55,329 nucleotides of DNA from a virus (taxonomy: Duplodnaviria > Caudoviricetes), in the IMG/VR virus record IMGVR_UViG_3300005077_000053, positions 1 through 55,329 of that record; one strand, given 5' to 3'. The position numbers and the translations under genes are program-made. This document shows, piece by piece, positions 35,638 through 55,152 of the stretch (positions are counted from its first letter, which is position 1; the number at the start of each line of letters is the position of its first letter). The notes beneath the pieces are model-generated. The model had not been told where the DNA came from, ran no database searches, and saw only the letters and a program-made list of their open reading frames with translations.

Positions 35638-36534
35638 TTAAAAAAATAATTGAGCATCTTGTAATGATTGAACAGAAAAACCAGCAGCTTTTTTATGACC
35701 ACCCCCACCAAACTCTTTAGCAATTTTAGCACAATCCACTTCATCTTTAATTGACCTTAATGAAAAATTCCAACCATTTTTACCTTTAACAAATGATACC
35801 ATAATATCATCTTTGTCTGAATCATATACACTTTCAAAATCTAATGATGAAATAGAACCTCTATTTAATATAATACAATTATATTCACCTAACCATTTAT
35901 AATATCTAAAACTATATGATTTAGCATAATTTTTACTAGTATTAATATGATACCTCTGAATATCACATCCAATATCAATAATATATTTAATATAACTTAA
36001 ATCTTCATCAATTATATAACCCCATTCTTCTTTTTGAAAATTTAAAATATTTTCTTCATCTAATTCAAAAATTGATCTTATCCCATATTGAAAATTTAAA
36101 ACATTATCAGAATAATGATCCCAAATATCATATCTACCTAATAATTTTACTCCATATGGAATTGTATCACTATAAAAATATTTATAAGTCAATTCACACC
36201 CAGAAAAATCATTATCAAAAACATACTCTAAACTTACTTTAGATCCACATAATTCAACTATTTCTTGAGAATGTTGTAAATAATTTTGATATGCTGATAA
36301 ATGATGATCTATAATTATAATTTTACCTCTAAATTTTTTAATTATATTAAACAAAATATTAATTTTAGGACAAAAATCTAAAAAATATAATGTTGAAATA
36401 TCATTTAATTTTTTTAAATCAAATTCTTCAGAATATGTAACCCCTAAAATATTACAATTAGTTTTTTTATTAATAATTGCAGCAGAACAGGCCCCATCTA
36501 AATCATCTTTATGATAACACGCTAAAATTGACAC
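35638..36534 (-). CDS. DHH/DHHA1 phosphoesterase
   Basis: YH.DDLDG, FLDF, IDHH, FSLRS, GGGGHKKAAGF. Confidence 0.9.
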   Translation of the reverse strand: MSILACYHKDDLDGACSAAIINKKTNCNILGVTYSEEFDLKKLNDISTLYFLDFCPKINILFNIIKKFRGKIIIIDHHLSAYQNYLQHSQEIVELCGSKVSLEYVFDNDFSGCELTYKYFYSDTIPYGVKLLGRYDIWDHYSDNVLNFQYGIRSIFELDEENILNFQKEEWGYIIDEDLSYIKYIIDIGCDIQRYHINTSKNYAKSYSFRYYKWLGEYNCIILNRGSISSLDFESVYDSDKDDIMVSFVKGKNGWNFSLRSIKDEVDCAKIAKEFGGGGHKKAAGFSVQSLQDAQLFF

Positions 36535-36718
36535 ACTTTACTCCTTTATTAATTTTATTTATATATTGAACATCTGATTTTGAAACCCAACAATCACCAA
36601 CCTCAACTAATTCATCATGTTTTTGGAGAGATCGTCCACAATCAGGACATTTTGGGCTAAAATCAGATATATTTATTTGTAATTTTGCACTTTTACAATT
36701 TTCACATATATAAAACAT
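36509..36718 (-). CDS. Small Zn-ribbon protein
   Basis: CENC...CPDCG. Confidence 0.6.
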   Translation of the reverse strand: MFYICENCKSAKLQINISDFSPKCPDCGRSLQKHDELVEVGDCWVSKSDVQYINKINKGVKCVNFSVLS

Positions 36719-37219: not shown

Positions 37220-38053
37220 TTATAAATACTTCTTTACATTAAATATTTCTTTATTTTGTTCTATATTATTAACTGGAGTTACAATAGAACAATCTCCAGG
37301 ATCATTAGGATTTCCCCAATTATCTCCTATATTATTTAGATAATTTAACCATCTAGATTGATCCCAATTTTTCATATATCTAGCTCGTTGTTTAATCCAA
37401 TTTTCAGTATGGGTTTTATGTTCATGATATAGATGATATACATTACAAGAAAAGTGTGAATTTACGGGGGTAAATCCAAAGGCTGCAAATTTGTGATATG
37501 TAGCAGTATCTTCTCCACCCCAAGTTCCTCTAAAATTTTCACATAATCCTTTATATTGAAAAAATAAATTTCTAGGAAAAAAGGTTATTCCCCCAGCACC
37601 TTTTGGCCCTTTCGGCTTAATACTAGATCTATTTCCTTGTTCTAATGTATATCCTTCTAATCCTTCTTTATTTAAAAATTTTTGAGTAGATATATTACTT
37701 AAATAATATAATATACCAAATCCACTACTATATAAATTACAAGATTGTGCTTCTTGTACCCATTGTTTAGTTACTATTATATCTGAATCCATTAAACATA
37801 TCATATCTCCAGTAGATAAATGTTTAACTGGGACGTTTAAAGCCCATGCTCTGTGAAATACTCCTTCAAATCCAGTGAACATATATTTACAATTTTCAAT
37901 TATTGAAGAATTTTCTAATGTTGGCGTTTCACCCATTTCATGAATACATATTTCAAAATTATTAGTAATTATATTTTTTAAATTTAATAATGTTGCTTCA
38001 AATAATGGATAACGAATTTGGTTGTGCATCCATGGTATTATTATACTAATCAT
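37220..38053 (-). CDS. Glycosyltransferase GT2 with galactosyltransferase (GT7C-like) C-terminal motif
   Basis: ISIIIP, FHRAWALN, MDSD, ENFRGTWGGED, YHLYH. Confidence 0.85.
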   Translation of the reverse strand: MISIIIPWMHNQIRYPLFEATLLNLKNIITNNFEICIHEMGETPTLENSSIIENCKYMFTGFEGVFHRAWALNVPVKHLSTGDMICLMDSDIIVTKQWVQEAQSCNLYSSGFGILYYLSNISTQKFLNKEGLEGYTLEQGNRSSIKPKGPKGAGGITFFPRNLFFQYKGLCENFRGTWGGEDTATYHKFAAFGFTPVNSHFSCNVYHLYHEHKTHTENWIKQRARYMKNWDQSRWLNYLNNIGDNWGNPNDPGDCSIVTPVNNIEQNKEIFNVKKYL

Positions 38054-38713
38054 TTAACCCCTTATAAATGTACATTTATCATTTTCAATATAATTTTTTA
38101 TTGTATAAAATAAAGCATGTTTACCGATATCAATATTATCTTCAGGATTATATTGATTAATATTTTTAATTAAATCTAGAATAAATATTGAAGATTTTTC
38201 AGTTTTAAAAATAATACAATTTGTTAATATCTTTTTATATGTGGTTTTTAAATTAAAGTTTATATTTTCAAAATCTGTACTGCGAGGTTTAATATTATCA
38301 AATATTTGTACATCTTCATCAAAATATAAAAAATCTTCTATTATGTTTCCTTGAAAATCACAATCACAATATATTAATGGAAAATCTATATTAATACTTT
38401 TTAACATATTAAATTTTTCTAATGAAATAATGTTTTTCCATAATTGTTGTTTTGATTTTAATTTTTTTGTATCATAATATTCTTTACTTGATATTAATTT
38501 TTCTAAATTACAATTATATCTACTTGCTAATTCTTCAATACTAATTTTTTCATTATTAATTTCCAAATTAGGATATAATTCATTTAATTCATTAATTTCT
38601 GATTTTCTCATATTTAATGAATTAATTAATACTTTATTAGTATTATTTTTAATTGATTTTAGAAAAGTTTTTAATTTTTCTAGATGTGATGATGTTGCGA
38701 ATGTAACGATCAT
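38054..38713 (-). CDS. GT-A-like protein, divergent paralog of 39857..40753
   Basis: FLKSIK, ELNELYPNLEINNE, YCDCD, GKHALF, KCTF mirror motifs of 39857..40753. Confidence 0.55.
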   Translation of the reverse strand: MIVTFATSSHLEKLKTFLKSIKNNTNKVLINSLNMRKSEINELNELYPNLEINNEKISIEELASRYNCNLEKLISSKEYYDTKKLKSKQQLWKNIISLEKFNMLKSINIDFPLIYCDCDFQGNIIEDFLYFDEDVQIFDNIKPRSTDFENINFNLKTTYKKILTNCIIFKTEKSSIFILDLIKNINQYNPEDNIDIGKHALFYTIKNYIENDKCTFIRG

Positions 38714-38976
38714 TTTTTTTCTCCTTTTACTATATATACTTCAGGAGGAGAACTAGTTATTTTAGGTAATTCAGATTTATTCCTCCATATTAATATTTTT
38801 CCATTTGTTGAATCAAATTTTCCTTCTATTATTATATCTCCGTCATGTGTTTTAGTGTGACAATTCGGGCATAAATAACATAAATTATTAGAGTTATTTT
38901 TACCACCTTTACTTTTAGATTGTATATGATGTCTATGTAATCTTATATTTTCTAACTCACAAATTTCACACTTCAT
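38710..38976 (-). CDS. HNH endonuclease-like protein
   Basis: CEIC...HHI....GG.N...NL..LCPNCH...H. TATAAATA on the - strand at 39009-16. Confidence 0.85.
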   Translation of the reverse strand: MKCEICELENIRLHRHHIQSKSKGGKNNSNNLCYLCPNCHTKTHDGDIIIEGKFDSTNGKILIWRNKSELPKITSSPPEVYIVKGEKK

Positions 38977-39024
38977 TAATAATAAATATTTTACTCCATA
39001 TTTATTACTATTTATATAAAAATC

Positions 39025-39417
39025 CTACATTCTACTAATTAAATAAATTTTTTCTACACTATATTCTGATAATTTTTTCTTTTTAGTATTATTACTAGGA
39101 TCGAATATATCTCCATTTTTCCAATATATTACATGTGTTCCATCTTCTATATATTCAGATTCTACTACAATAACCGCTTCAAAATCATCTAAATCAATTT
39201 GTATATTAATTAAAGGATGATCATCAAATTCTGTTTGAAATTGTATACCAAATCCAAATGTAATATCATGATCTGCTAAAAATATAGCAGCATCTTGATC
39301 TATATAAGGAGGATCACTACCAAACCAATCAAATACATATTGTTCATCTTTTTCTACTATCATTGCTAATACTGCTGCATAACAACTATCGGATCTACTT
39401 TGCTTAATTACTTCCAT
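39025..39417 (-). CDS. Papain-fold (C39-like) peptidase
   Basis: KQ....SCYAAVLAM, HVIYW, IFDP. Confidence 0.65.
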   Translation of the reverse strand: MEVIKQSRSDSCYAAVLAMIVEKDEQYVFDWFGSDPPYIDQDAAIFLADHDITFGFGIQFQTEFDDHPLINIQIDLDDFEAVIVVESEYIEDGTHVIYWKNGDIFDPSNNTKKKKLSEYSVEKIYLISRM

Positions 39418-39851
39418 ATCAACACTCCTTTAAGTATCCAATACATTAATACTAAATGTAAAGTATTATCAACTACAATACGAATTATCCAACCAACCAT
39501 GCATTTTTGAATCATTACTCCAGGACTAGTAATTTTACTTAACCCCATTTTTCTAGCAAATTCTTCAGGTGTATCTATTTTATTAAAAAATTTAACCCAT
39601 CTATCAACTATATGTAACCTATCAAATACCCAATGTGATAAAAATATTCCAATCATACCTAATATAGTAATTATAGATAACGGAAAAAATATACCATATA
39701 AACATAATATTACTATAATAGTATATATTAAACAATGAATAAAACATGGTAAATTTTGTTCTTTTTTATTACTTACCATCCAATGATTTTGGAAAAAATA
39801 ATCGCCTAATAAATGCCCAAATAATAAACATAAAACAATTTCTAATGTCAT
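39408..39851 (-). CDS. DUF3307-like membrane protein
   Basis: GHLLGDYFFQ..WM..K, H..IY, SHWVFD, DNTLH. Confidence 0.8.
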   Translation of the reverse strand: MTLEIVLCLLFGHLLGDYFFQNHWMVSNKKEQNLPCFIHCLIYTIIVILCLYGIFFPLSIITILGMIGIFLSHWVFDRLHIVDRWVKFFNKIDTPEEFARKMGLSKITSPGVMIQKCMVGWIIRIVVDNTLHLVLMYWILKGVLIWK

Positions 39852-39856
39852 TTTTA

Positions 39857-40753
39857 TTATCCTTTTGTTAAAGTTGGGATTGCTTTAGTATTAGGAATAG
39901 ACCTTTTTAATTCTTCTAAAGCATTTAATGCATTATTTAAATCATTAGATTTTCTTTTTGATTTGAAATACCAAATTTTAGAATTTTTATGTTTTTCTTT
40001 ATTGCCATCTACATACCCTAAATTTGTTTTTTCACGCCAAAATGTACATTTACCTTCTGTTATAAAATCATAAAACGCTTTATATATAGCATATTGTCCA
40101 TATTTAATATTATCTCTTTGTTTAATTGGTGTATTATTAATAATATCACACCAATATTGTACAAAAGCTTTCCCGGCTTCTGTATTGTTAATAGATGTAA
40201 AACAAATTGTTATTCTAGAATCAAATTTACCTATTTTTGTATTAGGAGAAGCAATATTTTGACCTTTAAAATTAAGTCTAAATGGTCTAATTCTATCTAC
40301 TATTCCTACATCAGCAGTAATTGCCCATTCAAAAATTTTAGATATATCTCCTCTAAAAAACCAATCAACATCTGTTTGAATCCAATATGGTTCATTCGGA
40401 TATATTTTAATTGTTTCATTAAATAAATTCATTCTATCATCATCTGCAGATAAATTCATATATAAACGATGACCTTTACCATCATTTTTATCATTAGCAC
40501 AGATTTTAAATGAATGTTTAACTTCTTCATAAGTTAAATTATGTTTCTTTGCTAATTTAACTAAATTAAATTCTCTATTATTAATTGTTAATTGAGGATA
40601 AATCTTAAATAATTCATCTAATTGTCCTTGTTTTAATCCTCTTGAATTTAAATGGATTTTTTCATTTGTTCCATTTGTTAATTTAAACGATTCTAAATAT
40701 ATTTTAATCCAAGGAAAATAATTAAATGTTGAATATATAACTAACATACCCAT
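39857..40753 (-). CDS. Nucleotide-diphospho-sugar transferase (GT-A, DxD)
   Basis: IQTDVDWFFRGDI, FVQYW, GQYAIY, IWYFK. Confidence 0.6.
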   Translation of the reverse strand: MGMLVIYSTFNYFPWIKIYLESFKLTNGTNEKIHLNSRGLKQGQLDELFKIYPQLTINNREFNLVKLAKKHNLTYEEVKHSFKICANDKNDGKGHRLYMNLSADDDRMNLFNETIKIYPNEPYWIQTDVDWFFRGDISKIFEWAITADVGIVDRIRPFRLNFKGQNIASPNTKIGKFDSRITICFTSINNTEAGKAFVQYWCDIINNTPIKQRDNIKYGQYAIYKAFYDFITEGKCTFWREKTNLGYVDGNKEKHKNSKIWYFKSKRKSNDLNNALNALEELKRSIPNTKAIPTLTKG

Positions 40754-41379
40754 TCTCCTAATAATGATTCAAATTCTTTTAATTCATTTTTATTACATAT
40801 TTCTTTATATTTATTTAAGTCTTTACCTATAGAATGTGTATCTAATGGAAGGGCTTTATAATTTTCTTTATCAATATTAAATGCTTCTTTAGGTACAAAA
40901 TTAGGATATTCTGAAAAATTATATTTTTTAATTAAATTAAACCCACGAGAATTAATTACATTTAATATTTCATTTTGAACAATATTTGGTTCATTAATTA
41001 ATCTATTATATTCTACATTATAAGTAATATATCTTCTATATTTTTTCATTTGAATAATTGAATTAATATATCTTTGTGGGGTTACTTTACCATCTAAAAT
41101 AACATCCCTACCATCTCTATATATATTAATAATTAAAATTCCTCTAGAATATATTTCAGTTAAATCTTTTAATATTTCTTCTTCTGATTTAATATTTGAA
41201 AATATAGAATTATATGTTCTTTTAGCTACAAGATTTTCAAATGAATTACTTAATCTTATAAATCGTTTTAATGAAATTTCATTATTAATAATATGTAAAT
41301 CTTTAAATGAATAAAATAATCTATTAAGTAAAGTTGTTCCAGATCGAGCACATCCAGTAATAAAAATTTTTATTCCCAT
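40741..41379 (-). CDS. Sulfotransferase
   Basis: 5'-PSB loop IFITGCARSGTTLL, 3'-PB motif IYRDGRDV, VEYNRL..P. Confidence 0.85.
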   Translation of the reverse strand: MGIKIFITGCARSGTTLLNRLFYSFKDLHIINNEISLKRFIRLSNSFENLVAKRTYNSIFSNIKSEEEILKDLTEIYSRGILIINIYRDGRDVILDGKVTPQRYINSIIQMKKYRRYITYNVEYNRLINEPNIVQNEILNVINSRGFNLIKKYNFSEYPNFVPKEAFNIDKENYKALPLDTHSIGKDLNKYKEICNKNELKEFESLLGEWVC

Positions 41380-42299
41380 TTACGTATTAATTCTCTCCCA
41401 TTATATAAATTTTGAAGATTATCATATAACTCTTTTATTCTTATTTCATCAGTATGATAATTTAAATAATCATTATGACAATTAATAGCTAATTGTAATA
41501 ATTTATCTTTATCTTTCAATATATTAAATAATTCAGAAAAGTCATTTTCTTTATATTCAATATAAGATAATGAAGGTAAAAATTTATTAATTAAATGAAA
41601 TTTTGGAGTTAAAGGAATTGCTCCTGATGCTATAATTTCAAATAATTTACCATATGGACTATCTAATTCAGCACTATTTAAAATTATTTTAAATTTCTTT
41701 AAGATTCCTGGATATTTTAAAGGATCTACTTTACCTTTATTAACTAAAATATTTTTACTTTCTAAATATTCAATTGCTTTAATTCTTTGATCATATATAG
41801 TAGATAATGATCCGACAAATAAAACATTAGGATTACGTCTATCAAATTTATTAAAATCAAAATTACTAAATTCTTTTTGTGAAGCAGAAAAAGGTAAACA
41901 CACATGTTTTATATTTTGACCATCTAAAAATCTTAAATAAGAATTAAAATTTTCAGATATAACCATTCTATGAAATACTAAATCAAATTTATTAGATGTA
42001 TAAAATTCTGGATTATTTTTTAATACTTTATAATAATCCACAGCAATATTAACCTTAAGAATATTTTTAATATCCTTAAGGTAATTATTAAGTTCTATAG
42101 AATGAGCATGGGTTATTAATATATCTGGATTAGTTTTCTTAATTACTTTATTTATAGATTGTATAATTCCTTTTTTCTTTATATATACTTGTTCTATAAA
42201 TAAATTAATGTCTTCAAAATTATTTAATTTTTTTAAAAATCCTAAATGTAATCGATAACTTATTGGTGTTTTATCATGCGTTAATATAGTTATACGCAT
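41370..42299 (-). CDS. GT-B glycosyltransferase (CgeB/GT4-like)
   Basis: LPFSA, VLFVGS....YDQR, KLFEIIASGA, H..E.R. Confidence 0.75.
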   Translation of the reverse strand: MRITILTHDKTPISYRLHLGFLKKLNNFEDINLFIEQVYIKKKGIIQSINKVIKKTNPDILITHAHSIELNNYLKDIKNILKVNIAVDYYKVLKNNPEFYTSNKFDLVFHRMVISENFNSYLRFLDGQNIKHVCLPFSASQKEFSNFDFNKFDRRNPNVLFVGSLSTIYDQRIKAIEYLESKNILVNKGKVDPLKYPGILKKFKIILNSAELDSPYGKLFEIIASGAIPLTPKFHLINKFLPSLSYIEYKENDFSELFNILKDKDKLLQLAINCHNDYLNYHTDEIRIKELYDNLQNLYNGRELIRKWE

Positions 42300-42400
42300 A
42301 ATTTATATAAAATATATCCACATAAAAATATAATTAAGCCATAAAAACCAATATAAAATAATTTATATTTAAGTTTTAAATCAGAAAAATATTTTATCAT

Positions 42401-43150
42401 TTATTCCTCCAACCAATTAACTGATTTTTTTTGTTTAAAGAATTTTATTACCTCTGATTTATTTGTAATATAATCCCAAATTTCTAATTTATTTTTTTTC
42501 GATATATTTGATCTCATTTCATATTTTTCAACGTTTAAGAAATTACATAATAATTCATTTGTTTCTTCATTTAAATATGTAATTTGGTCAGAAGTTAAAT
42601 TAAATGCAAAATGTTTTTCTACATTATTTAATTCTCCTTCTGTTCTTCCGAATAATTGTTTCATCTCTATTTCAATATAATTATTATACTTTTTTAATAT
42701 TTTTTTGTAATTATCTACTCTTTTTTTAGATTCTTTTATTTCATTATATAAATGTTCAGGGTTAATTTCTCTAGGAGTAGGATCTAATTCATTAGCTGTC
42801 CACCTTGAAAATACACGTTTTAATTGGTTTTTTCTAATTAAATGTATAATAGAAATATTTAAATCTTTTAATATATTAATAATATTTCCATATTTTTTAT
42901 CTTGGTTATACATTAATCTAAAACAAACGGTTTTTTCTTGATTTAATCCATATATCCATTCTAAATATTGTCTAATGGAAAAACTTCGTTTTTCCTGCAT
43001 AGTTTTATATAATTGAACTCCCGCCCGTTTTTTCGCTCGACCACTATACATAAACATTTCATCTAAACATAATATATCTGGGTGAGAATCTAATGCGTGT
43101 TGTAAATATGTACTTGCAGTTCTTTTATCAGCTAAAATGACAGATTTCAT
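42401..43150 (-). CDS. Sulfotransferase (Stf0-like)
   Basis: KRTASTYLQHALDSHPDILCLDEMF, IIHLIRKNQL...S. Confidence 0.8.
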   Translation of the reverse strand: MKSVILADKRTASTYLQHALDSHPDILCLDEMFMYSGRAKKRAGVQLYKTMQEKRSFSIRQYLEWIYGLNQEKTVCFRLMYNQDKKYGNIINILKDLNISIIHLIRKNQLKRVFSRWTANELDPTPREINPEHLYNEIKESKKRVDNYKKILKKYNNYIEIEMKQLFGRTEGELNNVEKHFAFNLTSDQITYLNEETNELLCNFLNVEKYEMRSNISKKNKLEIWDYITNKSEVIKFFKQKKSVNWLEE

Positions 43151-43153
43151 ATA

Positions 43154-45346
43154 TTATAACTCCAGTCCAATATGCTTCATAGCAGGATTTCGATATACTT
43201 CAGGATCACGATTAATTCCTAGAATTTGATCAAACATATATATATAATTTTTATACATTAAATCCCAGGTCCAAGTTTCTTCAATTGATTTTCTAACATT
43301 ATTACCCATTTCAATTAATTTATCTCTATTTTTTCTAAGGTATTTTATTTTTTCTACATAAGCATTTATTTCTTTTTCTACGATAAATCCATTATATCCG
43401 TCAATGATTAATTCTGGCATATTACCAATTTTATTAGATATAATAGGTCTTCCACAGGCGGCTGCTTCTAATGCTGGGTTCGGTGTTCCATCTTCTGAAC
43501 TTGCAACAATAAAAACTTCTAATGCTTGATATATCTCATACATTTTATCATGTGAAATTTTATCTTGATAATTATTTAAATGTAATAATTTATCTGCACC
43601 GGCTTTTTGTATTGCAGGAATAATATAATCTTGTTGACCTTTTCTAGGAGATAATTTTCCAACATGACCCACAATAATATTATCTCTTTTTTCTAAAATA
43701 GGTTTAACAGGTCTAAATAATTTATGATCCACACCATTAGGAACATAATAAACTAAATTATGATATTTTTTTACTATATTATATAATAAAACACTATTAG
43801 CATGAATAACGGCTGCTTTTTTCATCTGTGGTTCTAATAATGAATCTGGTCTATGAGCAGTTACTCCAGTTATTCTTTTATTAAATGGAATAGATGATAA
43901 TTTGTCTATAAATGAATGACCATATGTAAAATATAAATCATATTTATTTCGATCTAAAGGTTGTCGATTATTACCATATAAACAAACTATATCAATTTTA
44001 TAATATTCTTCTAAATATTTTTTTAAATATTTAGATTTTAACCACCACGCCCAACCTTCAACATCACAAACAAAAACAATTTTAGGTTTTTTATTCATTA
44101 AATTTGGTTTTGGTAATTCTGTAATATTATTATATTGAGGGACATCTTCTATACTTTTACCCCTTTTAGAAGGTGGGGTTATTTTAGGAAAACGTTGTCT
44201 TAATTGTTTTGATTTTTTTTCATTATTTTTATCGATACCACTTATTACATATGTAGTATTTCTACCTTTTGAAATAATACTATTGATCATATAAATCTCT
44301 TTATCTGCTTTTAATGCAATACTTTTTATTAATGTAGGAATATCCCCAGCTATATCAGCAGATTTTCCATCTAATATTTTTTTAGAAAAACATACAGAGG
44401 TATATCCGTTTATTTTACTAGTATTTACTTGTGTTAATAAATTATTATAATTTACATATTGAATTTGATTAGAATTAGCATTATCTATTAATATTTTATT
44501 TTCATCATAATATTGTTTAAATACATTGATTATATTATATCTATAAGTTTTATCTAATGAATTTAATATTATAATACAATCATTAGAAGAACTCTTAATA
44601 GTATTAAAAAATACACTTGCAATTCTACTTGATGTCGGTTCTAATTTAATAATTTTATCTTGTCTGGATTTTACTCTTAAATTTAAAAATTTGTCAAAAT
44701 TAGAATGTGATTTTGTTGGAATTATAATCGTAGCATTTTTATCTAATTCTGAAACAATATTAACAAATTTATCATCTTTTATTATCATTTTAGAAGATCT
44801 AATATGTTTTAAAGAAAAATATTGTAAAATTGCATTATCATTAATAATAGATTTACAATTTAATTCTTTTAATTTATTAATAAAATCTTTAAAATGTATA
44901 TATGTTTTATTATCATATTTTTCATTAAACAATCTTGCTTCTAATGCTTTTTCTAAATTAAATTGTATATTAATAGGAATATTAACACTTTCCCCATCAT
45001 ATATTGAATTACATTCTTGAATTATATCTGGTGAAATTTTTTGTCTTATTTTTTCTATTATATTACTATTAGGTAATGAAAATGGATCAATAATTAACAC
45101 ATTATTATTAATAGTAAAATGTAATAACGATAAATTTAAAATTTTTGATTCTGAACATTCATGCTCAAAATATATAACTTTAGACATATCTGGAAAAAAA
45201 TCTTTATCTAAAGTACTTTTATTCATTCCATAATTAGCAATAATTAATTGATCTGTATCTGTTAATTGATTAGCAATTATAGTAAAAAGTTTTGCAAATG
45301 AATTAGGAACAGATGAAACTGGTATAATTACCGTTAAATTATTCAA
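43154..45346 (-). CDS. Multidomain glycosyltransferase: degenerate GT2-like domain(s) fused to a GT4 domain
   Basis: N-terminal LTVIIP and ATIIIPT. C-terminal VPNGVD...F.P, DGTPNPALEAAACGRPII, ELIIDGYNGF. Confidence 0.85.
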   Translation of the reverse strand: MNNLTVIIPVSSVPNSFAKLFTIIANQLTDTDQLIIANYGMNKSTLDKDFFPDMSKVIYFEHECSESKILNLSLLHFTINNNVLIIDPFSLPNSNIIEKIRQKISPDIIQECNSIYDGESVNIPINIQFNLEKALEARLFNEKYDNKTYIHFKDFINKLKELNCKSIINDNAILQYFSLKHIRSSKMIIKDDKFVNIVSELDKNATIIIPTKSHSNFDKFLNLRVKSRQDKIIKLEPTSSRIASVFFNTIKSSSNDCIIILNSLDKTYRYNIINVFKQYYDENKILIDNANSNQIQYVNYNNLLTQVNTSKINGYTSVCFSKKILDGKSADIAGDIPTLIKSIALKADKEIYMINSIISKGRNTTYVISGIDKNNEKKSKQLRQRFPKITPPSKRGKSIEDVPQYNNITELPKPNLMNKKPKIVFVCDVEGWAWWLKSKYLKKYLEEYYKIDIVCLYGNNRQPLDRNKYDLYFTYGHSFIDKLSSIPFNKRITGVTAHRPDSLLEPQMKKAAVIHANSVLLYNIVKKYHNLVYYVPNGVDHKLFRPVKPILEKRDNIIVGHVGKLSPRKGQQDYIIPAIQKAGADKLLHLNNYQDKISHDKMYEIYQALEVFIVASSEDGTPNPALEAAACGRPIISNKIGNMPELIIDGYNGFIVEKEINAYVEKIKYLRKNRDKLIEMGNNVRKSIEETWTWDLMYKNYIYMFDQILGINRDPEVYRNPAMKHIGLEL

Positions 45347-45347
45347 A

Positions 45348-46301
45348 TTAAAACTCCTTTAAAAATGCTTTTACAGTATCTTGTTTTTCTAATATTAAAT
45401 TAATAGTATTTTCCATTCTTATTACACTAGAATGATATTTTTGCATAAAATTAAATATATTTTTTCGCATTTCAATATTATCTTTATTTATATTTTCTTG
45501 TATTAATGATACAACTTTAGGAATATTATTATATGAATCAAATCCTATATATAAATTTCTAGGTATTAAATCATCCATATCTTTAAATCTTCTACCTACT
45601 AATAATGATCCTACTCCACCATATTGCCAAAATCTACAATCTGTATAATGTTTTATATCATATCCAGTACACGCCGCAATAATACATGGTGAAGATCTAC
45701 CAATACTTGCAAAATTTTGTTTAGTATCACCAGCTTTTCTTTGTTTTATATATATAGGAATATGTGCACCTAATTGATTCAAAAAATTAGATCTATCCTC
45801 ATGAGCAGTAGGATTTCCAGTAAACACCGGCTTACCAAAATCAAACTTCTTATCATATTCAGGCATCTTATCAAATGTTAATGAACAATAAGGAAAAAAA
45901 TGTACCGGAATATTCCAATATTTAGTAAATTTTTTAATATTATGTGTTTGTCCAATTAATGCCATATCAAATGCATAACTTATATCATTAAAATATCTAG
46001 GTTCATGTCTAGCATCTTGCATAGAATGTATTATTTTTGTTCCTACATATTCTCTTAAATTTTCAAATATGCCCATAATTGTCATCGTATCATGCCAATT
46101 ATGAAATGTTAAATGTGTAAATAATATATCAGGTTCAAATCTAAATAAATTTTTTTCTATACTTTGAATAGTATTTTCTTTATATTTTAATGCTAATACA
46201 TTATGACCTAATAATTCTAATCCTTGCCAAGTCGTTTTACAAAACCAAGAATATGTTTTTTGCCAAGTATTTTCAACATTACCTAAAATACAAATTTTCA
46301 T
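45348..46301 (-). CDS. GT-B glycosyltransferase (CgeB-like)
   Basis: GLELLGHNV, EPDILF, VFTG, RFWQYGGVG, H....R. Confidence 0.65.
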   Translation of the reverse strand: MKICILGNVENTWQKTYSWFCKTTWQGLELLGHNVLALKYKENTIQSIEKNLFRFEPDILFTHLTFHNWHDTMTIMGIFENLREYVGTKIIHSMQDARHEPRYFNDISYAFDMALIGQTHNIKKFTKYWNIPVHFFPYCSLTFDKMPEYDKKFDFGKPVFTGNPTAHEDRSNFLNQLGAHIPIYIKQRKAGDTKQNFASIGRSSPCIIAACTGYDIKHYTDCRFWQYGGVGSLLVGRRFKDMDDLIPRNLYIGFDSYNNIPKVVSLIQENINKDNIEMRKNIFNFMQKYHSSVIRMENTINLILEKQDTVKAFLKEF

Positions 46302-47139
46302 GTTTTATTTCCTTATAATATTCATTTAAAATACAATTTATAATCTCTATATCAACAGATGTTAATTTAGAAAATTTTGGTGAATTTGATATTCCATGAA
46401 AGGTTTTATTAGTTGTTATTGATGGATGAAATATATGCTGTGGATATATATGTTCATCAATATTTAAATAATCAAATATTTCTCTAACATATAAATACGG
46501 ATCTGAATATAAATCTTCATACTTTAAAAATTTAATATTAGTATATCTAGATTTTATATATTTTATATATTGAGTAGTTAAACCCCACATATGAGTTAAT
46601 CTTTCTATCTGACCATACCTATTCAATGGATACTGAAATTTTATATTTGTATTTCTAGAATTTTTAAAAAATATATTAAATGTTTCTTCTTTACCAAACT
46701 CATAAAAATTTCTAGATAAAATACTTGATATTACATCATATGGATTACGTTCTATATATATAATTTTCTTAAATATGGTAGACATATTATGTAATTGAAA
46801 ATTTAATCTTATAGATTTTATACCGATAATTTCTGAATTATCCCAAATTTTATTTAAAAATCCTTCAGTTAATTTATTATGAGCTATATCATGGTGTAAT
46901 GCATTTCTTAATAACCATGGTGATCTAATATTTTTATATAAAATATTATCTAAATATTCATATAATTGAACATATTCTTTTCCTAAAATTAAACTATTAT
47001 ATGCATATTTTTTAGAATACGTTTCATTTACTGAAGGGTGGAATGGTTCGAATAATATTAATTGATTTAGAGTTCTTGCTATAATATCTGATAACCAAGT
47101 TGTTCCAGATCTACCAAATCCTGCAATTAGAATATACAA
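46279..47139 (-). CDS. Sulfotransferase
   Basis: ILIAGFGRSGTTWL, FEPF, IERNPYDVISS, LKYEDL..DP. Confidence 0.88.
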   Translation of the reverse strand: MYILIAGFGRSGTTWLSDIIARTLNQLILFEPFHPSVNETYSKKYAYNSLILGKEYVQLYEYLDNILYKNIRSPWLLRNALHHDIAHNKLTEGFLNKIWDNSEIIGIKSIRLNFQLHNMSTIFKKIIYIERNPYDVISSILSRNFYEFGKEETFNIFFKNSRNTNIKFQYPLNRYGQIERLTHMWGLTTQYIKYIKSRYTNIKFLKYEDLYSDPYLYVREIFDYLNIDEHIYPQHIFHPSITTNKTFHGISNSPKFSKLTSVDIEIINCILNEYYKEIKHENLYFR

Positions 47140-47158
47140 ATTAATTTCACCATCCTTT

Positions 47159-47428
47159 TTATTTATTTGGTAATCCGTTTACACCTTTATCCCAATCTAT
47201 ATCTTTTCTATTATATTGGGAGGTTTCATATCCTTCTGCACCCCAACTACAAACATCTGTTTTATTATTATATACTAATTTAAAATATCCACCTGTAGTT
47301 AATTTTTTAATATTTTTAGATTGACATTTTGGGCATTTTGTCCCAATAATTGTTTGCCCATTATTAGCAAACTCAATTTCTTCCCATTCATGTTCACATT
47401 TTTCACATTTATAATCAAAAATAGGCAT
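47159..47428 (-). CDS. FmdB-family Zn-ribbon protein
   Basis: MPIFDYKCEKC.HEWE...CPKC.S..IKKL. Confidence 0.85.
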   Translation of the reverse strand: MPIFDYKCEKCEHEWEEIEFANNGQTIIGTKCPKCQSKNIKKLTTGGYFKLVYNNKTDVCSWGAEGYETSQYNRKDIDWDKGVNGLPNK

Positions 47429-47441
47429 CTTTATCTCCTCA

Positions 47442-48269
47442 TTACAAAATATACTTTTTCAAAAAATATTCTATTGTTTTTACTAATCCTTCAATAGGAC
47501 TTTTTCTTTCAAAAAATATACTCATACATTTTTTATTATCAAAATTATAAATACCGTCTTCTTTAAATTGTCCTGGAACTTTACCCCAGGTAAAAGTTGG
47601 TTTATTATATATATTAGAAATAAAACTCCAATGTGAATTTGGTGTTATTACTGCTTTAGAATTTTTAATACTTCCTAATATATCAGAATATACATTTTGA
47701 AAATACATAGAATCTTTTAATATTAAATTTTCTTCTTTAAGATGACATTTCATATCCCCAATTACAATTACATCATCAGAAAATTCTTTAAGTTTTTTTA
47801 AAATTTTATAAGCATTTTCCTCCTTCATTTTTTTATGAGGAATAAATACTATTTTATTATTATATTCTTTTTTTTCTGTATATGGCAAAGGTTCATATAT
47901 TTTCTTATATATAGGAATTTGAAATTGACTTTTAATATATATTACATTATAATAAGTAAGATCCTTTAATTTACAATTTAATTTTGAACATATATGAGAT
48001 TTAAAATCTTTACATAATTTTTGAAAATCTTTTTGTTTTAACTCTTTATGAATATATCTAACTTGATGTAATTCATCTCTTAATAATGAATCAGGTACAT
48101 TATATATACTTTCATCAGATAACCAATCATATAAAAATCTTCTATTACTATAAATAGATAAATGTATATTTTTATGATTATTTACATATGTTAACCATTT
48201 AACATATGGTAAAAAATGAAATATCTCATATTCAAAATCCCCAACAAAAGGACCAATAACTAAGTTCAC
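47442..48269 (-). CDS. GT9 (heptosyltransferase)-like glycosyltransferase
   Basis: GDF......P, VIVIG, IKNSKAVITPNS...ISNIYNKPTFTWG. Confidence 0.5.
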   Translation of the reverse strand: MNLVIGPFVGDFEYEIFHFLPYVKWLTYVNNHKNIHLSIYSNRRFLYDWLSDESIYNVPDSLLRDELHQVRYIHKELKQKDFQKLCKDFKSHICSKLNCKLKDLTYYNVIYIKSQFQIPIYKKIYEPLPYTEKKEYNNKIVFIPHKKMKEENAYKILKKLKEFSDDVIVIGDMKCHLKEENLILKDSMYFQNVYSDILGSIKNSKAVITPNSHWSFISNIYNKPTFTWGKVPGQFKEDGIYNFDNKKCMSIFFERKSPIEGLVKTIEYFLKKYIL

Positions 48270-48271
48270 AA

Positions 48272-48724
48272 TTATCCTTCAATAATAACGTTGCCGTTCC
48301 ATTTCTCAAATATATATAAATTTTCATTAAATGTTTTAAAATCAACTAAAATAACTTCTAAATTATTCAAAGTATCTTCTAAACAATCATATAAAATAAA
48401 TTCTTTAACACTATTAGTAACTCTATTCATATTTAATAAAACTTTATTATTTTTTCTAAAAAATGAAATAATATTATTTAAATTATCTAAATTTTCTACA
48501 TAAAATTTCTTTTGTATATTTTTAAAAACTGAATTATAAAATTTTATATTATTATCTACAACAAAACGTTTTGTCATTGGAAAACAATCAAATACTTTAT
48601 TTATTTTTTCATATGTAGGATATTCAAAAGCTAATTTAATTAAATGTACTTTAGAATTTCTATACTTTAATTCTGATTGTTCATCAACAATCAAATAATC
48701 TTGTCCAATTTTAGTAATCTTCAT
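48272..48724 (-). CDS. Hypothetical protein
   Basis: 150-aa ORF in operon after primase. Confidence 0.6.
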   Translation of the reverse strand: MKITKIGQDYLIVDEQSELKYRNSKVHLIKLAFEYPTYEKINKVFDCFPMTKRFVVDNNIKFYNSVFKNIQKKFYVENLDNLNNIISFFRKNNKVLLNMNRVTNSVKEFILYDCLEDTLNNLEVILVDFKTFNENLYIFEKWNGNVIIEG

Positions 48725-48733
48725 TTTAACAAT

Positions 48734-49717
48734 TTATCCTCCTAATTTCATCTTAACTATAACTTGTAATTTATTAAACGTATTATCTAACACATGTTCA
48801 TATATATTTATATCAGGCCAACTAGTTTTTATTTCATTTAAATCCTTTTTATTATATTTATATATAAAATATTTTACCACATCAGAATATTTAGACTCAT
48901 TAATAAACTTATTTAACATTTTTTTACCAGCATCATCATTATCCAATGCAATAATTATACCCTTTTCAGTATGTTTTAATAATTTTTCTATAAATTTGTC
49001 GTCAATATATGCTTGTAATAAACATGTTCCATTATTCCCAACAGATAATGCATCTAATAATCCTTCAGTAATAATAATATATTTAGAAGAATCAAATTTA
49101 TCTAAATTAAATATAATAATTTGTTTTTCTGTTGGGGGATTTAAATATTTAGGATTTAATCCTCTAGCCTGAAAATATACCATTTTTTCTTCTTGAAAAA
49201 TTGGTATAATAATCCTATTAGCATATTTACCACAATATGCATAATATAACTTCTGATTATCTGGAATTTGCCTAAATTTTCTAAAAGACTTTATAATCTT
49301 TTGATATTTCTTTTCTGAATATCCTTTATACTCTTTATCTTCTTCTATACATTCTTTTAATATATATGAATAATCTTTATATTCAATTATAGGTGTTTTT
49401 TTGTTTTTGATTAAAGGATTCAATTTTCGTTTTATAGAATCTGGATTATATTTATATAATGTTCGATACGCTTCAGAAGAATTTAATCCTGTATATTTAC
49501 AATAAAATTCTATAAATGAACCATGTTCACCACAACGAAAACAATGGTACCCTGGGGTACCATTGTTATAATCAATATGAAATCGTTTTACATTTTTTTT
49601 AGTTTGAGAATCTCCACATAAAGGGCATCTAAAATTCCAATGTGTTCCACTATTAGAAATATTCACATCTGGAAAATTAGATAATATAAAATCATTAATA
49701 ATATCTTGAGAAACCAC
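48734..49717 (-). CDS. gp61: DNA primase, T4 gp61-like
   Basis: FRCPLCGDS...CFRCG zinc domain, RIIIP, YFQAR, ITEGLLDAL, LDNDDAG, KDLNE. Confidence 0.92.
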   Translation of the reverse strand: MVSQDIINDFILSNFPDVNISNSGTHWNFRCPLCGDSQTKKNVKRFHIDYNNGTPGYHCFRCGEHGSFIEFYCKYTGLNSSEAYRTLYKYNPDSIKRKLNPLIKNKKTPIIEYKDYSYILKECIEEDKEYKGYSEKKYQKIIKSFRKFRQIPDNQKLYYAYCGKYANRIIIPIFQEEKMVYFQARGLNPKYLNPPTEKQIIIFNLDKFDSSKYIIITEGLLDALSVGNNGTCLLQAYIDDKFIEKLLKHTEKGIIIALDNDDAGKKMLNKFINESKYSDVVKYFIYKYNKKDLNEIKTSWPDINIYEHVLDNTFNKLQVIVKMKLGG

Positions 49718-50216: not shown

Positions 50217-51269
50217 TTAAACTAATTCACATTTTTCTCCAATACATGCATATTCTTGAGCCCCAGTTGTATTATCTTCTTCTTCAAACTTATCTAATTC
50301 ATTATAATCTATTTCTGGCATCTTGTTAATTAATTCATTGTATTTCTCTTCAGTAATTTCTTCATATGGGGCTAATTTATAAATTCCTCCGTCATATGGT
50401 AAAAATGAAACCCCAGAAATAAAATCCCAATTCTTATATAACCAAGCTAATACTTCTAACCACTCATTTTCTTTTACATAAATTGTACAACTTGGTTTAT
50501 GTGTACACCAATAATCTTGAATCATTTTCCAATATTCTAATTGTTCTAATGCAGTTTTTTCATCTCTCATAACTGCTGAATCAGGAGATTTACATGGAAA
50601 CTCAAATACATAAGTTTTACAATCTTCTAATTTTTTACCTACTTCCGGTTGATATGGAACTCCTTTATTAATCATAAATTGACACATTGGATCCATAGAA
50701 TCAACTCTTACTCTTCTAATATAATATGGAGAATATCTAGGATGAATTCCTGAACTTGTATTCATTAATTGCGAAACATTTCCACTCGGTTTTACCGCAG
50801 TAAATGAAGTTGACATATTAATTTCTAAAGCGTGACACCATTCTTTCATAGTAGATAATGCTTCTTGTTTCATAGCAAATAACCATTCTTTTGCTTTAGT
50901 AGATTTACGATTTAAAACATTATTATCTGCTAATCCAGTTAAACTTACTCCTAATAATCTTTCCTCTTCACAATTCTTTTTCCAATTTCGATTAAGAAAT
51001 TTAAAATTAGTTAATGTACTTTGAACTACTCCTAAAATAGTAGCATTTCTAACTTTTATTTTTAAAGTATCTAAATCATCATTTTCACGAATAATTACTT
51101 CACTTAAATTACAAAACTGATTACTTCTTAATATAATTTCACTATTATGTACTAAAATATCGTTAGCAAAAAAATTATGATTCTTAGGACAATTTATATC
51201 ATACGTATCTTCATTTTCTACGACGTTAATTTTTTTAATTCTTTTTTTGATAACTTTATATTTTTCCAT
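50217..51269 (-). CDS. nrdJ: Class II ribonucleotide reductase C-terminal fragment with C-intein (42 aa, 51269-51144)
   Basis: TYDI....HNFFANDILVHN|SEIILRSNQFCNLSEV, VKPSG, HKPSCT, terminal ACIGEKCEL. Confidence 0.93.
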   Translation of the reverse strand: MEKYKVIKKRIKKINVVENEDTYDINCPKNHNFFANDILVHNSEIILRSNQFCNLSEVIIRENDDLDTLKIKVRNATILGVVQSTLTNFKFLNRNWKKNCEEERLLGVSLTGLADNNVLNRKSTKAKEWLFAMKQEALSTMKEWCHALEINMSTSFTAVKPSGNVSQLMNTSSGIHPRYSPYYIRRVRVDSMDPMCQFMINKGVPYQPEVGKKLEDCKTYVFEFPCKSPDSAVMRDEKTALEQLEYWKMIQDYWCTHKPSCTIYVKENEWLEVLAWLYKNWDFISGVSFLPYDGGIYKLAPYEEITEEKYNELINKMPEIDYNELDKFEEEDNTTGAQEYACIGEKCELV

Positions 51270-52021
51270 TCATTTAATTCCTTTATATATGTTGTATTTA
51301 ATAAATATGGGTTTAAATCATCAATTATTATAATATTCACATTATATTCTTTTTTTAACATTTTAATTTTATAAAGTCTTAGTTTAAATCTAGATCCTTT
51401 TACTTCAACTATATATTCAATATTATTTTGAATTATTTTAAAATCTGGTAAATATGATTCCCCATTCGATAATTTAAATGATTTATAAATTGGATCCCAA
51501 ATTATATTATTATAATCTAACCATTTACAATATACATATTCCCATGTACTTCTTAACCAAATATATTTTCCATTTTTTCTTTTATAATATCCTTGAATTC
51601 CAGTATTAGAATTATCTATAATATTATATCCTTTTTCTGGCCAATTATACCATGGACTTTTATTTCCGGAAACTCTTTCTGATCTAAATTTTTTTAATTT
51701 TTCTGTTACAACATTTTTTCCGGTTCGTGTTTTTAAATTTAAATAATTTATTAATAAATTTCTTGTTTTTGTATATGATAAACCCAAACATTTAGCAATA
51801 ATTTTAAATCCATATCCACTATTATAAAAATCTTCTAAATATTTTAAAGAATCTGAATCTAATTTATTTTCTTTTAAAAACCTTTCTCTTTCAGATTCTT
51901 TTTTAAATTGATTTTTTATATTTTTCTTTTTTAATACTTCATTATACCATTTTAAAATACTTTCTTTATGATTAATATCAAAATCTACTTGCATTTTAAT
52001 ATTCCATGGATTTTTTTTCAT
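51218..52021 (-). CDS. Free-standing homing endonuclease (PD-(D/E)XK, TnsA-like) between the split nrdJ halves
   Basis: RSTWE...KWLD, YLPDF, VEVKG. Overlaps the C-intein start. TATAAATA at 52040-47 on the - strand. Confidence 0.8.
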   Translation of the reverse strand: MKKNPWNIKMQVDFDINHKESILKWYNEVLKKKNIKNQFKKESERERFLKENKLDSDSLKYLEDFYNSGYGFKIIAKCLGLSYTKTRNLLINYLNLKTRTGKNVVTEKLKKFRSERVSGNKSPWYNWPEKGYNIIDNSNTGIQGYYKRKNGKYIWLRSTWEYVYCKWLDYNNIIWDPIYKSFKLSNGESYLPDFKIIQNNIEYIVEVKGSRFKLRLYKIKMLKKEYNVNIIIIDDLNPYLLNTTYIKELNEWKNIKLSKKELKKLTS

Positions 52022-52086
52022 TTTTATCTCCTATATAATTATTTATAAAAAATAAAAATGGAATTAATCCATGTAGCATATTTTTA

Positions 52087-55083: not shown

Positions 55084-55152
55084 TTTAAATCTCCATATCT
55101 TCAATCACAATCTAAACATACACCATTGGTGTATGTGAAATAAATTCATATT

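Follow-up and report, generated by a model that had tools for sequence, protein, structure and literature searches.

A conserved island of glycosyltransferase and sulfotransferase genes in a clade of jumbo phages that may build a sulfated sugar coat

The most likely function of an island of glycosyltransferase (GT) and sulfotransferase genes at positions 37220-48269 of the IMG/VR virus record IMGVR_UViG_3300005077_000053 is the synthesis of a sulfated sugar coat, on a target that belongs either to the phage or to its host. We analysed the record over its whole 55,329 bp (hereafter the window); its completeness is put at 23%, for an implied genome size of about 240 kb, and absences reported for it apply to about 23% of that genome. 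The source is a roughly 240-kb, AT-rich jumbo myophage of the T4 superfamily. The island lies between the primase gene and a convergent SbcCD block and is filled by 16 co-directional minus-strand open reading frames (ORFs), which follow the primase and a conserved 150-aa ORF; its junctions range from 23-nt overlaps to 19-nt gaps, apart from one 48-nt and one 101-nt gap. It holds three sulfotransferases of the type that uses 3'-phosphoadenosine-5'-phosphosulfate (PAPS), seven GT genes supported by fold or by hidden Markov model (HMM), and genes for a zinc-ribbon, a DUF3307, a small C39-like and an HNH protein (Table 1). An earlier note, made from the letters of the window alone, had described essentially this content, and it was borne out by HMM scans, folds and paralogy; the estimate of about seven GTs also held, with each of the seven supported by HMM, fold, leads or paralogy.

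The three sulfotransferases (ST1, ST2 and ST3) look functional, as PAPS-binding motifs are intact in all of them. These motifs are a 5'-phosphosulfate-binding (5'-PSB) loop (xxRSGTT) and a 3'-phosphate-binding (3'-PB) motif (R....S/D). ST1 scored 46.3 bits against Sulfotransfer_1 (cut-off 22) and 38.8 bits against Sulfotransfer_3 (cut-off 27). Its 5'-PSB motif GRSGTTW and 3'-PB motif RNPYDVISS line up with those of a human SULT (SULT1C3), and GRSGTTW, E31, H34, R131 and S139 are retained and are invariant in 69/69 homologs, the best of which is 44% identical; a single-sequence scan of the viral collection with ST1 found nothing. ST3 scored 27.3 bits against Sulfotransfer_3, for which the cut-off is 27, and its 26 homologs, all PF13469, are at most 48% identical. 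The loop CA(R/K/H)SGTT, in which the basic residue before SGTT varies among R, K and H, and E34 are present in all 26 aligned homologs; in the RDGRDV motif the N..R.G..V core is kept in all 26 and D89, R91 and D92 in at least 90%. S13, G14, T15, T16, R88, G90 and V93 are invariant across the 26 sequences. ST2 reached only 19.9 bits against Sulfotransfer_3, below the cut-off of 27, and its identity as a sulfotransferase is supported by motifs and family: KRTxST, HP..C.DE and RKN..K...SR are invariant in its family (3/3 sequences), and ST2 itself reads KRTASTY and RKNQLKRVFSR. The two clear RSGTT-type loops (ST1 and ST3) and the RTAST of the third enzyme (ST2), as read in the earlier note, were thus found intact and family-conserved, and the check for missing catalytic residues showed the motif residues kept in all three. 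The label 'Stf0-like' for ST2 had to be withdrawn, since no Stf0 family match was found at E<=0.1 in Pfam, and none in NCBIfam; in Pfam, ST2 matched only Sulfotransfer_3 and, by chance, GTP_cyclohydro2.

We then considered the island in related phages, using scans of the viral collection with island proteins together with alignments, which gave 14 related viral contigs, or 15 with the window. Wherever the upstream flank is covered, the order is primase, 150-aa ORF, GT9-like GT and zinc-ribbon, followed by GT4 and the CgeB-like GT. Primase homologs 41-43% identical precede the island in four relatives, and the 150-aa ORF, 47-53% identical in 6 of the 14, adjoins the GT9-like gene wherever its flank is covered. 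The GT4 part is 35-60% identical in 12 of the 14 relatives, where it forms a protein of its own of about 420-430 aa. In five relatives (G001, G002, c35k, c28k and c15k) the ST2 gene comes immediately after that of the CgeB-like GT and overlaps or abuts it, and a metagenome scan with the ST2 family yielded one further CgeB-like/ST2 pair (L045) and otherwise remote sulfotransferases. The G001 and G002 islands end, like that of the window, at a convergent junction with the SbcC block, indicating that the island occupies a fixed genomic site. Across nine contigs the pairwise identities of ST2 and of the adjacent CgeB-like GT were correlated (Mantel r 0.77, permutation p 0.0008), a correlation driven largely by two tight sub-clades; this co-divergence argues for long co-residence and not recent capture. 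The core is conserved over contigs of 25-41% GC, which probably represent different hosts. The architecture is therefore a conserved core (GT9-like GT, zinc-ribbon, GT4, CgeB-like GT, usually then ST2) amid rapidly changing GTs, sulfotransferases and sugar pathways, and the island is a conserved trait of a phage clade, variable in content. ST1 and ST3, with nearest homologs only 44% and 48% identical and none in the 14 relatives, would be old or distant acquisitions. The proposal that the pathway is resident and not recently captured agrees with these distances, with the shared core and with the ST2-GT co-divergence, and the synteny search suggested alongside it found the core at the same site in the 14 related contigs. 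Outside this clade, a tblastn search (E<=1e-3) of 50,697 deposited phage records found no match to ST1, ST2, ST3, the CgeB-like GT or the GT9-like GT; the tail sheath, used as a control, matched 2,678 records. One relative, G003 (L013), has its primase, GT4 and CgeB-like GT homologs broken into several short ORFs, which suggests assembly or sequencing errors or decay, and it was left out of conclusions on gene content.

The position of ST2 bears on an alternative in which some or all of the sulfotransferases act off the glycan, sulfating protein tyrosines or a small molecule and merely sharing the locus. The ST3 family profile has tyrosylprotein sulfotransferases (TPSTs) as its best solved-structure sequence matches (7.2e-5 to 9e-4), a single-sequence search of the PDB with ST3 returning chance matches only, and the N-terminus of ST2 aligns to the same TPST segment, non-significantly (E 0.6-0.9). 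In addition, the C39-like protein is encoded two genes downstream of ST3, and the pair brings to mind the RaxST/RaxB sulfated-peptide system. We regard this alternative as very improbable, given that the TPST similarity lies mainly over the shared PAPS-binding motifs, that ST2 directly follows the CgeB-like GT in relatives and co-diverges with it, that the C39-like gene is absent from all 14 relatives, and that no precursor-peptide-like gene was noticed. A RaxST-like system made of the C39-like protein and a sulfotransferase was set aside as a candidate for the same lack of the C39-like gene in relatives.

Sulfation genes recur across the clade. A sulfotransferase-like ORF was present in 11 of the 15 contigs, strongly in nine and weakly in two (2.3e-5 and 1.2e-7 to local family HMMs), and the four negative contigs are 9-57% complete. 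G007 carries four Pfam-supported sulfotransferase ORFs, and G001 and G010 carry two each. Adenosine-5'-phosphosulfate (APS) kinase (PF01583) was found in 3 of 11 whole records (G001, G002 and G010), inside the island each time; its gene overlaps the end of a sulfotransferase gene in one relative, and the G002 enzyme passes the TIGR00455 cut-off. It occurs in 3/7 sulfotransferase-positive and 0/4 sulfotransferase-negative records, numbers too few for significance. ATP sulfurylase (PF01747) was found in none of five records. As the earlier note had observed, the window has no PAPS-synthesis gene, neither APS kinase nor ATP sulfurylase being found. Its further proposal that host UDP-sugars and PAPS are used may hold for the window, whereas three relatives have an in-island APS kinase and relatives have nucleotide-sugar pathways of their own. 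A DHH/DHHA1 phosphoesterase gene lies downstream of the island. As a candidate phosphatase for 3'-phosphoadenosine-5'-phosphate, it scored only 16.5 bits against NrnA (16-19 bits for NrnA/RecJ) and had one PDB match, a DHH protein without a name; the recycling role was dropped, as homologs occur in one of five relatives and that one lacks sulfotransferases.

The nucleotide-sugar genes differ between relatives. The G002 island encodes two UDP-sugar dehydrogenases, epimerases/dehydratases, a GT-D enzyme, an asparagine-synthase-type amidotransferase and an S-adenosylmethionine (SAM) methyltransferase, as well as GT2s, a UDP-GlcNAc 2-epimerase, a hexapeptide acetyltransferase and a GFO/IDH/MocA oxidoreductase. 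That of G001 encodes a DegT aminotransferase, a PglD-like acetyltransferase and three epimerases/dehydratases, one of them intein-interrupted, and that of G005 a cytidylyltransferase (CTP_transf_3), a class IV aminotransferase and a radical SAM/SPASM protein. The interrupted NDP-sugar epimerase/dehydratase of G001 (L004 6947-9589) matches Epimerase in two stretches (1.2e-20), Intein_splicing (1.7e-9) and LAGLIDADG_3 (5.9e-9); an intein inside a sugar-nucleotide enzyme is unusual. Two relatives' islands also encode a Dam-type (D12 class) N6-adenine DNA methyltransferase (L004 6130-6942, 1.2e-19; L012 5883-6686, 2.3e-20), in both after a 371-390-aa protein without a family match.

Among the GTs, the 317-aa CgeB-like protein is the most widely shared. 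Its AlphaFold2 (AF2) model (predicted local distance difference test, pLDDT, 94.6; deep alignment) is a GT-B fold of GT4 type, with PimA at Z 21.8 and GT4 enzymes at Z 21.8-18; BshA, PglA and a WaaG-type fold are among the matches. The protein has no Pfam match of its own and its family profile gave chance matches only against PDB sequences, but some of its 216 homologs, which lie on contigs as long as 240 kb, carry PF13524. When the family alignment was compared with 185,579 species genomes, three matches were obtained, all on short contigs of metagenome-assembled genomes, two of which also hold homologs of other window genes. Judged by these searches, the family appears virtually confined to phage-type contigs.

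The same model bears on DNA hypermodification, in which part or all of the island would glycosylate modified phage bases in the manner of T4 and so evade restriction or CRISPR. The T4 alpha-glucosyltransferase is the second-ranked structural match of the CgeB-like GT (Z 20.4; root mean square deviation, rmsd, 3.4; 295 aligned) and the T4 beta-glucosyltransferase reaches Z 16.1. The island also directly follows the primase, in a replication/nucleotide module with ribonucleotide reductase (RNR) and ThyX, a Dam-type methyltransferase lies within two relatives' islands, and a divergent ThyA-family protein occurs in 3/5 relatives. Nevertheless, we consider this explanation improbable. The third-ranked match stands at Z 19.9 and many GT4 enzymes lie within about 1-2 Z units of the T4 enzyme, so its match reflects the general fold. 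The seven GTs, three sulfotransferases and relatives' di-N-acetylated-sugar, uronic-acid and amidotransferase pathways go far beyond the DNA glycans known to us, and sulfated ones are not known. No hydroxymethylase was found in the window, which covers 23% of the genome. The ThyA-family protein of relatives may be a synthase or a hydroxymethylase; it scores best as an archaeal-type thymidylate synthase (93-96 bits) and occurs where ThyX was not found (0/5 records), while the window has a bona fide ThyX, and from the best score and the distribution of ThyX we read it as an alternative thymidylate synthase and not a hydroxymethylase. Three relatives carry such a protein, with genes at L061 1468-2271 and L062 1039-1896, and that of L061 adjoins a small DPPY-motif methyltransferase-like ORF.

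The first conserved GT, a 275-aa protein whose family has 141 representatives, was also modelled with confidence (AF2 pLDDT 96.3, deep alignment). Foldseek matched the model to WaaF (6.9e-6) and also to WaaC and TibC. In VIA the closest structures were a Veillonella GT9 (3tov; Z 13.8, rmsd 4.4, 239 aligned) and WaaF (1psw; Z 13.3), followed by TibC (4rap; Z 12.0) and 2h1f (Z 11.6), with generic GT-B chains at Z 10.8 or below and the unrelated chain 7wff_a at Z 13.6. The model thus has a GT-B fold closest to GT9 structures, and the protein looks like a GT9-type enzyme without the GT9 sequence signature: Glyco_transf_9 gave no match at E<=0.1, and a four-sequence profile against PDB sequences found no GT9 chain and chance matches only. 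In the 730-aa protein, the C-terminus matched Glycos_transf_1 (PF00534, 3.6e-17) and PHROG 2170 (3.4e-17), so the GT4 half of the GT2/GT4 fusion previously proposed stands; the GT2 half was not confirmed, since residues 1-200, 201-400 and 1-400 gave no family match at E<=5. The 298-aa GT-A protein has no Pfam match, and language-model and structure leads from the Atlas place it with PF03407/GT8-like viral clusters (feature score 0.97, TM 0.68). It is a paralog of the 219-aa GT-A protein (29% identity over 239 aa, E 6e-19), with a DxD motif in both (DVD and DCD). The 277-aa protein matched Glyco_transf_7C (2.8e-6), Glycos_transf_2 (0.015) and PHROG 1721, a galactosyl transferase family (1.2e-7).

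Export and lipid-carrier genes were then sought. A hydropathy scan of the coding strand in the window island and six related loci revealed no polytopic membrane ORF, the exceptions to a soluble profile being the window's small DUF3307 protein and a single two-segment ORF in each of L014 and L022. Phosphoglycosyl transferase PF02397 was found in 0/5 records, in a search that had the PF00953, Wzx and Wzy models outside it. Since no polytopic membrane ORF and no PF02397 were found, the island enzymes are predicted to be soluble, and the locus is provisionally not a self-contained Wzx/Wzy- or ABC-type polysaccharide pathway. The lack of a flippase or polymerase gene, already remarked on, therefore extends to the related islands.

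These enzymes bear on a rival explanation, remodelling of the host envelope. Soluble GTs would extend a lipid-anchored host acceptor (lipid A-core, lipooligosaccharide (LOS)-like or another glycoconjugate) at the inner membrane face, the product would be displayed by host MsbA/Lpt or other host exporters, and sulfation and the variety of sugars would alter the surface of the infected cell, which might for instance block superinfection or stop progeny from adsorbing to infected cells and debris. The first conserved GT is most like the lipopolysaccharide (LPS) heptosyltransferases WaaF and WaaC and a GT9 structure (Z 11.6-13.8), and GT4 (with a WaaG-type fold among the matches) and GT8-like GT-A leads are also in the set. 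Assembly of the LPS core requires only soluble enzymes of GT9, GT4 and GT8 type, and sulfated LPS occurs in Sinorhizobium. The island thus resembles LPS core/LOS loci (WaaC/WaaF of GT9, WaaG of GT4, and GT8) in having the same fold families and soluble or peripheral enzymes with no flippase or polymerase gene needed. Moreover, one relative has a CTP_transf_3 cytidylyltransferase, of the KdsB/NeuA family, the island runs in the same direction as early or middle-type replication genes, and clusters of GTs and epimerases in T4-like cyanophages have been read as cell-surface modification in the cited part of that work (PMC12801897). We nonetheless hold host remodelling to be somewhat unlikely. The GT9-like protein has no GT9 Pfam match, and the protein heptosyltransferase TibC fits about as well (Z 12.0). 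Unlike LPS core/LOS loci, the islands show no Kdo transferase, lipid A or export gene, and the island belongs to a lytic-type phage with multiple sulfotransferases. Cytoplasmic glycosylation of proteins is the better-known role of CgeB-type and GT-D enzymes, and a core shared across contigs of such different GC is easier to explain with a phage-encoded acceptor, though lipid A-Kdo is also conserved.

An exposed virion protein ranks first as the acceptor of the glycan, at rather less than an even chance. Soluble GTs would assemble an oligosaccharide in the cytoplasm of the infected cell by adding the sugars directly to the acceptor; no route through undecaprenyl-phosphate, a flippase or a polymerase would be involved. 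The three sulfotransferases would add sulfate from PAPS, which for the window phage would come from the host or from the unseen part of the genome, and in some relatives a phage APS kinase would boost the PAPS supply. The result would be a particle with a variable, negatively charged sugar coat. We rank a virion protein first because the gene repertoire closely parallels the fibril-glycosylation clusters of Megavirinae, because CgeB-type enzymes are proposed, in the part of PMC13577073 cited here, to glycosylate a protein shell inside a cytoplasm, and because the CgeB-like family occurs almost only on phage-type contigs. The fuller proposition, that a jumbo-phage clade coats its virions with a phage-made, multiply sulfated, protein-linked oligosaccharide through soluble GTs, 1-4 sulfotransferases and in some members an APS kinase, is put forward more tentatively still. 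The multi-sugar, multiply sulfated glycan on a cytoplasmic target of the earlier note agrees with the enzyme set and its residence in the clade; the cytoplasmic target is plausible, and the host envelope fits the soluble GT set equally.

Several points weigh against a virion-borne sulfated glycan. The island lies in the replication/nucleotide module, away from structural genes, and mycobacteriophage GTs lie near capsid genes. The soluble GT9/GT4/GT8-like set would serve LPS-core assembly on lipid A just as well, and a DNA-modifying enzyme of T4 is the rank 2 structural neighbour of the CgeB-like GT. The window itself is without a PAPS-synthesis or nucleotide-sugar gene, the association of sulfotransferases with APS kinase is drawn from few records, and the related records are all fragments (9-66% complete), in which absences are weak. 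ST2 and the GT-A proteins have sub-threshold or lead-level assignments, and acceptor and activity are deduced from the genes of an uncultured phage. Ser/Thr-rich tracts, tried as markers of acceptor sites, were confined to baseplate or fibre-like proteins, their usual location, and were rejected as non-diagnostic.

Of known systems, the closest documented analogue by gene content is the fibril-glycosylation cluster of Megavirinae. As given in the portions of PMC10117803 and PMC9614988 cited here, these clusters (12 genes in Moumouvirus australiensis, 21 in Cotonvirus) contain a sulfotransferase, a sulfate adenylyltransferase (SAT)/APS kinase, GTs related to streptococcal adhesin GTs, a di-N-acetylbacillosamine (diNAcBac) pathway and papain-like genes, and the authors state that sulfation 'needs experimental validation'. 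On those descriptions, both are virus-encoded clusters at a fixed site whose content differs between clades, with several GTs, a sulfotransferase and an adenylyl-sulfate kinase (here in relatives), the same kinds of dehydratase, aminotransferase and acetyltransferase as in the diNAcBac pathway (DegT, PglD-like and dehydratases in phage relatives), interspersed papain-like genes and no lipid-carrier export genes; sulfation is predicted in both. The phage clade accordingly shows clustered GT, sugar-nucleotide and sulfate-activation/transfer genes at a conserved site with clade-variable content. Megavirinae are nucleocytoplasmic large DNA viruses of eukaryotic hosts, unlike a tailed phage of a prokaryote. 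Their clusters, as far as described in those portions, have one sulfotransferase and a bifunctional SAT/APS kinase, whereas in the phage clade the sulfotransferases number up to 3-4 and the APS kinase is mono-functional. Their acceptor, the fibril, is known, whereas the phage island is known from genes alone, the two being compared by gene description.

Other systems share parts of this picture, and a coat on virion proteins would parallel giant-virus fibril, mycobacteriophage capsid and CgeB-dependent Bacillus spore-crust glycosylation. The mycobacteriophage system has one or two GTs beside structural genes. In virion O-glycosylation as summarised in the cited part of PMC12619734 (citing Freeman et al. 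2023), capsid and tail-tube proteins are modified by phage GTs while still in the cytoplasm, which produces a glycan shield. That system differs in lacking sulfation as well as sugar-nucleotide and PAPS genes. In the spore crust, according to the section of PMC13577073 used here, the protein CgeA is the proposed target of O-glycosylation by B. subtilis CgeB (317 aa). Soluble enzymes, CgeB-type GT-Bs of about 310-320 aa among them, there glycosylate a protein shell inside another cell's cytoplasm; the system is cellular and that section describes no sulfation. Of the phage proteins only CgeB309 passes the PF13524 cut-off, and the 317-aa protein is tied to CgeB by its fold and by members of its family. 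T4-like cyanomyoviruses (S-SCSM2R, S-SCSM1 and P-SSM2) have 'LPS / cell-wall modification' clusters; in the cited part of PMC12801897 these large marine T4-superfamily myophages carry up to 13 GTs with NDP-sugar epimerases, the proposed role is host-surface or DNA modification, and the word sulfotransferase has 0 occurrences in the paper. Their clusters are not of the same gene families, since the five island proteins had no match in deposited phage records. Four core GT families have been described in the aquatic jumbo 'moraphages' (PMC12619734, in part). Single PF13469 sulfotransferases, their function given as 'unclear' in the cited parts of these sources, occur in OM43 phage MVGs and Synechococcus phage S-SRM01 (PMC10580990) and in glacier-ice viruses (PMC8290583); those are isolated genes, whereas here the conserved GT island holds 2-4 sulfotransferases, to which relatives add an APS kinase. 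A phage pathway of sulfotransferase, GT and APS kinase genes, or one for a sulfated glycan, was not found in the literature searched, where supplementary tables (lists of auxiliary metabolic genes) might add viral sulfotransferases. The statement that no phage pathway of this kind has been characterised thus agrees with these searches for tailed phages, and has to be set beside the giant-virus clusters with sulfotransferase and SAT/APS kinase in the cited part of PMC10117803. What sets the island apart from other virus-encoded glycan islands is that a module of several sulfotransferases recurs in tailed phages, together with a phage APS kinase.

The remaining island genes and the surrounding genome were also annotated. 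No PHROG family matched at E<=0.01 for 8 of 10 island proteins, all three sulfotransferases among them. Of the labels previously given to the small genes, FmdB-type zinc-ribbon, DUF3307 and HNH were confirmed by HMM, and the C39-like label gained nothing beyond Atlas leads (features 0.95-0.96, TM 0.75 to a cluster in which 29% of members carry PF03412), with no Pfam match. The DUF3307 gene is probably an accessory insertion, the HNH gene likely a mobile insertion and the C39-like gene probably accessory. A second small zinc-ribbon ORF of 69 aa (36509-36718, minus strand; Zn_ribbon_8 0.0015, below cut-off) lies in the spacer of about 700 nt between the island and the DHH gene. The T4-type late-promoter motif TATAAATA was observed 37 times against 43.6 expected and is uninformative on timing, and scans for sigma-70 promoters and terminators were at chance level.

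Table 1. Genes of the island and its flanks, with the evidence for each assignment and the number of the 14 related contigs that hold a homolog
Feature	Position	Strand	Basis	Related contigs (of 14)
DNA primase, upstream anchor outside the pathway	48734..49717	-	Toprim_2 1.1e-9, Zn_ribbon_DnaG 1.9e-5	
Conserved 150-aa protein between primase and first GT	48272..48724	-	no Pfam match	
GT9-like GT-B glycosyltransferase, 275 aa, conserved first GT	47442..48269	-	fold	7 (tblastn)
FmdB-type zinc-ribbon, 89 aa, adjoins GT9-like gene	47159..47428	-	Zn_ribbon_8 7.8e-11	7 (homologs)
Sulfotransferase ST1, 286 aa	46279..47139	-	Sulfotransfer_1 4.5e-12, Sulfotransfer_3 1.5e-9	0 (tblastn)
CgeB-like GT-B glycosyltransferase, 317 aa, most conserved island gene	45348..46301	-	fold, family	13 (tblastn)
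730-aa protein, C-terminal GT4 (about residues 394-730) and N-terminal half of about 390 aa	43154..45346	-	Glycos_transf_1	12 (tblastn, GT4 domain)
Sulfotransferase ST2, 249 aa, clade-wide	42401..43150	-	motifs and family; Sulfotransfer_3 9.3e-4	8 (tblastn)
CgeB-family glycosyltransferase CgeB309, 309 aa	41370..42299	-	PF13524 (Glyco_trans_1_2) 4.2e-7	4 (homologs)
Sulfotransferase ST3, 212 aa	40741..41379	-	Sulfotransfer_3 5.3e-6	0 (tblastn)
GT-A-type nucleotide-sugar transferase, 298 aa	39857..40753	-	Atlas leads, DVD motif	6 (tblastn, weak homologs)
DUF3307 small membrane protein	39408..39851	-	DUF3307 2.2e-9; two hydrophobic segments	0 (tblastn)
Small C39-like (papain-fold) protein, weak assignment	39025..39417	-	Atlas leads	0 (tblastn)
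HNH endonuclease	38710..38976	-	HNH 1.1e-8	0 (tblastn)
GT-A paralog, 219 aa	38054..38713	-	paralogy to 298-aa GT-A; DCD motif	
GT-A glycosyltransferase, GT2/GT7C type, 277 aa, last of run	37220..38053	-	Glyco_transf_7C 2.8e-6	
DHH/DHHA1 phosphoesterase, 298 aa, downstream of island	35638..36534	-		0 (tblastn)

The PHROG matches of the window, to a tail sheath (1.9e-95), a baseplate wedge, a baseplate hub and SbcC, indicate a contractile-tailed phage. Its sheath is at most 38% identical to that of any deposited phage, the best being Sinorhizobium phiM12-like phages and an Ochrobactrum phage, and near-identical DNA was not found among deposited phages. GC content is 0.20-0.30 throughout the record, with 0.20-0.25 in the island and 0.22-0.30 elsewhere, and no tRNA gene was found in the record. 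A 507-aa homing/HNH endonuclease gene (5891-7414, plus strand; PHROG 3339 at 7.7e-119) directly follows the tail-sheath gene. On reading the translations, an RNR-like gene looks split (50217-53385, minus strand): a 432-aa ORF (52087-53385) has a Hint-like 'CLPADTLIKT...' segment at its end, a 350-aa ORF (50217-51269) starts with an intein-end-like '...VHNS' before RNR-like sequence resumes, and a 267-aa ORF (51218-52021) lies between the two pieces, which looks like an intein or homing-element insertion. ThyX is encoded at 54430-55104 (TIGR02170, 128.7 bits against a cut-off of 87.9).

Sulfation is rare in prokaryotes and their viruses, and sulfated glycans are typical of animals and algae. 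The island provides a concrete enzyme set for asking whether tailed phages make sulfated glycoconjugates, on what, and with serotype-like diversification. It also brings in enzyme families, the CgeB-like GT (216 homologs, with three matches in species genomes), the GT9-like GT and ST2, none of them in deposited phage genomes, and it links to the sulfation prediction for Megavirinae fibril clusters, still unvalidated in the cited portions of those reports. If the proposed coat is real, no sulfated glycoconjugate would have been known from a bacteriophage before it, and the fibril glycans of giant viruses would have a counterpart among prokaryotic viruses. Clade-specific differences in the island would then act like serotype variation of the particle surface, with effects on adhesion to sulfated marine polymers or mucus, on shielding or on avoiding non-productive adsorption.

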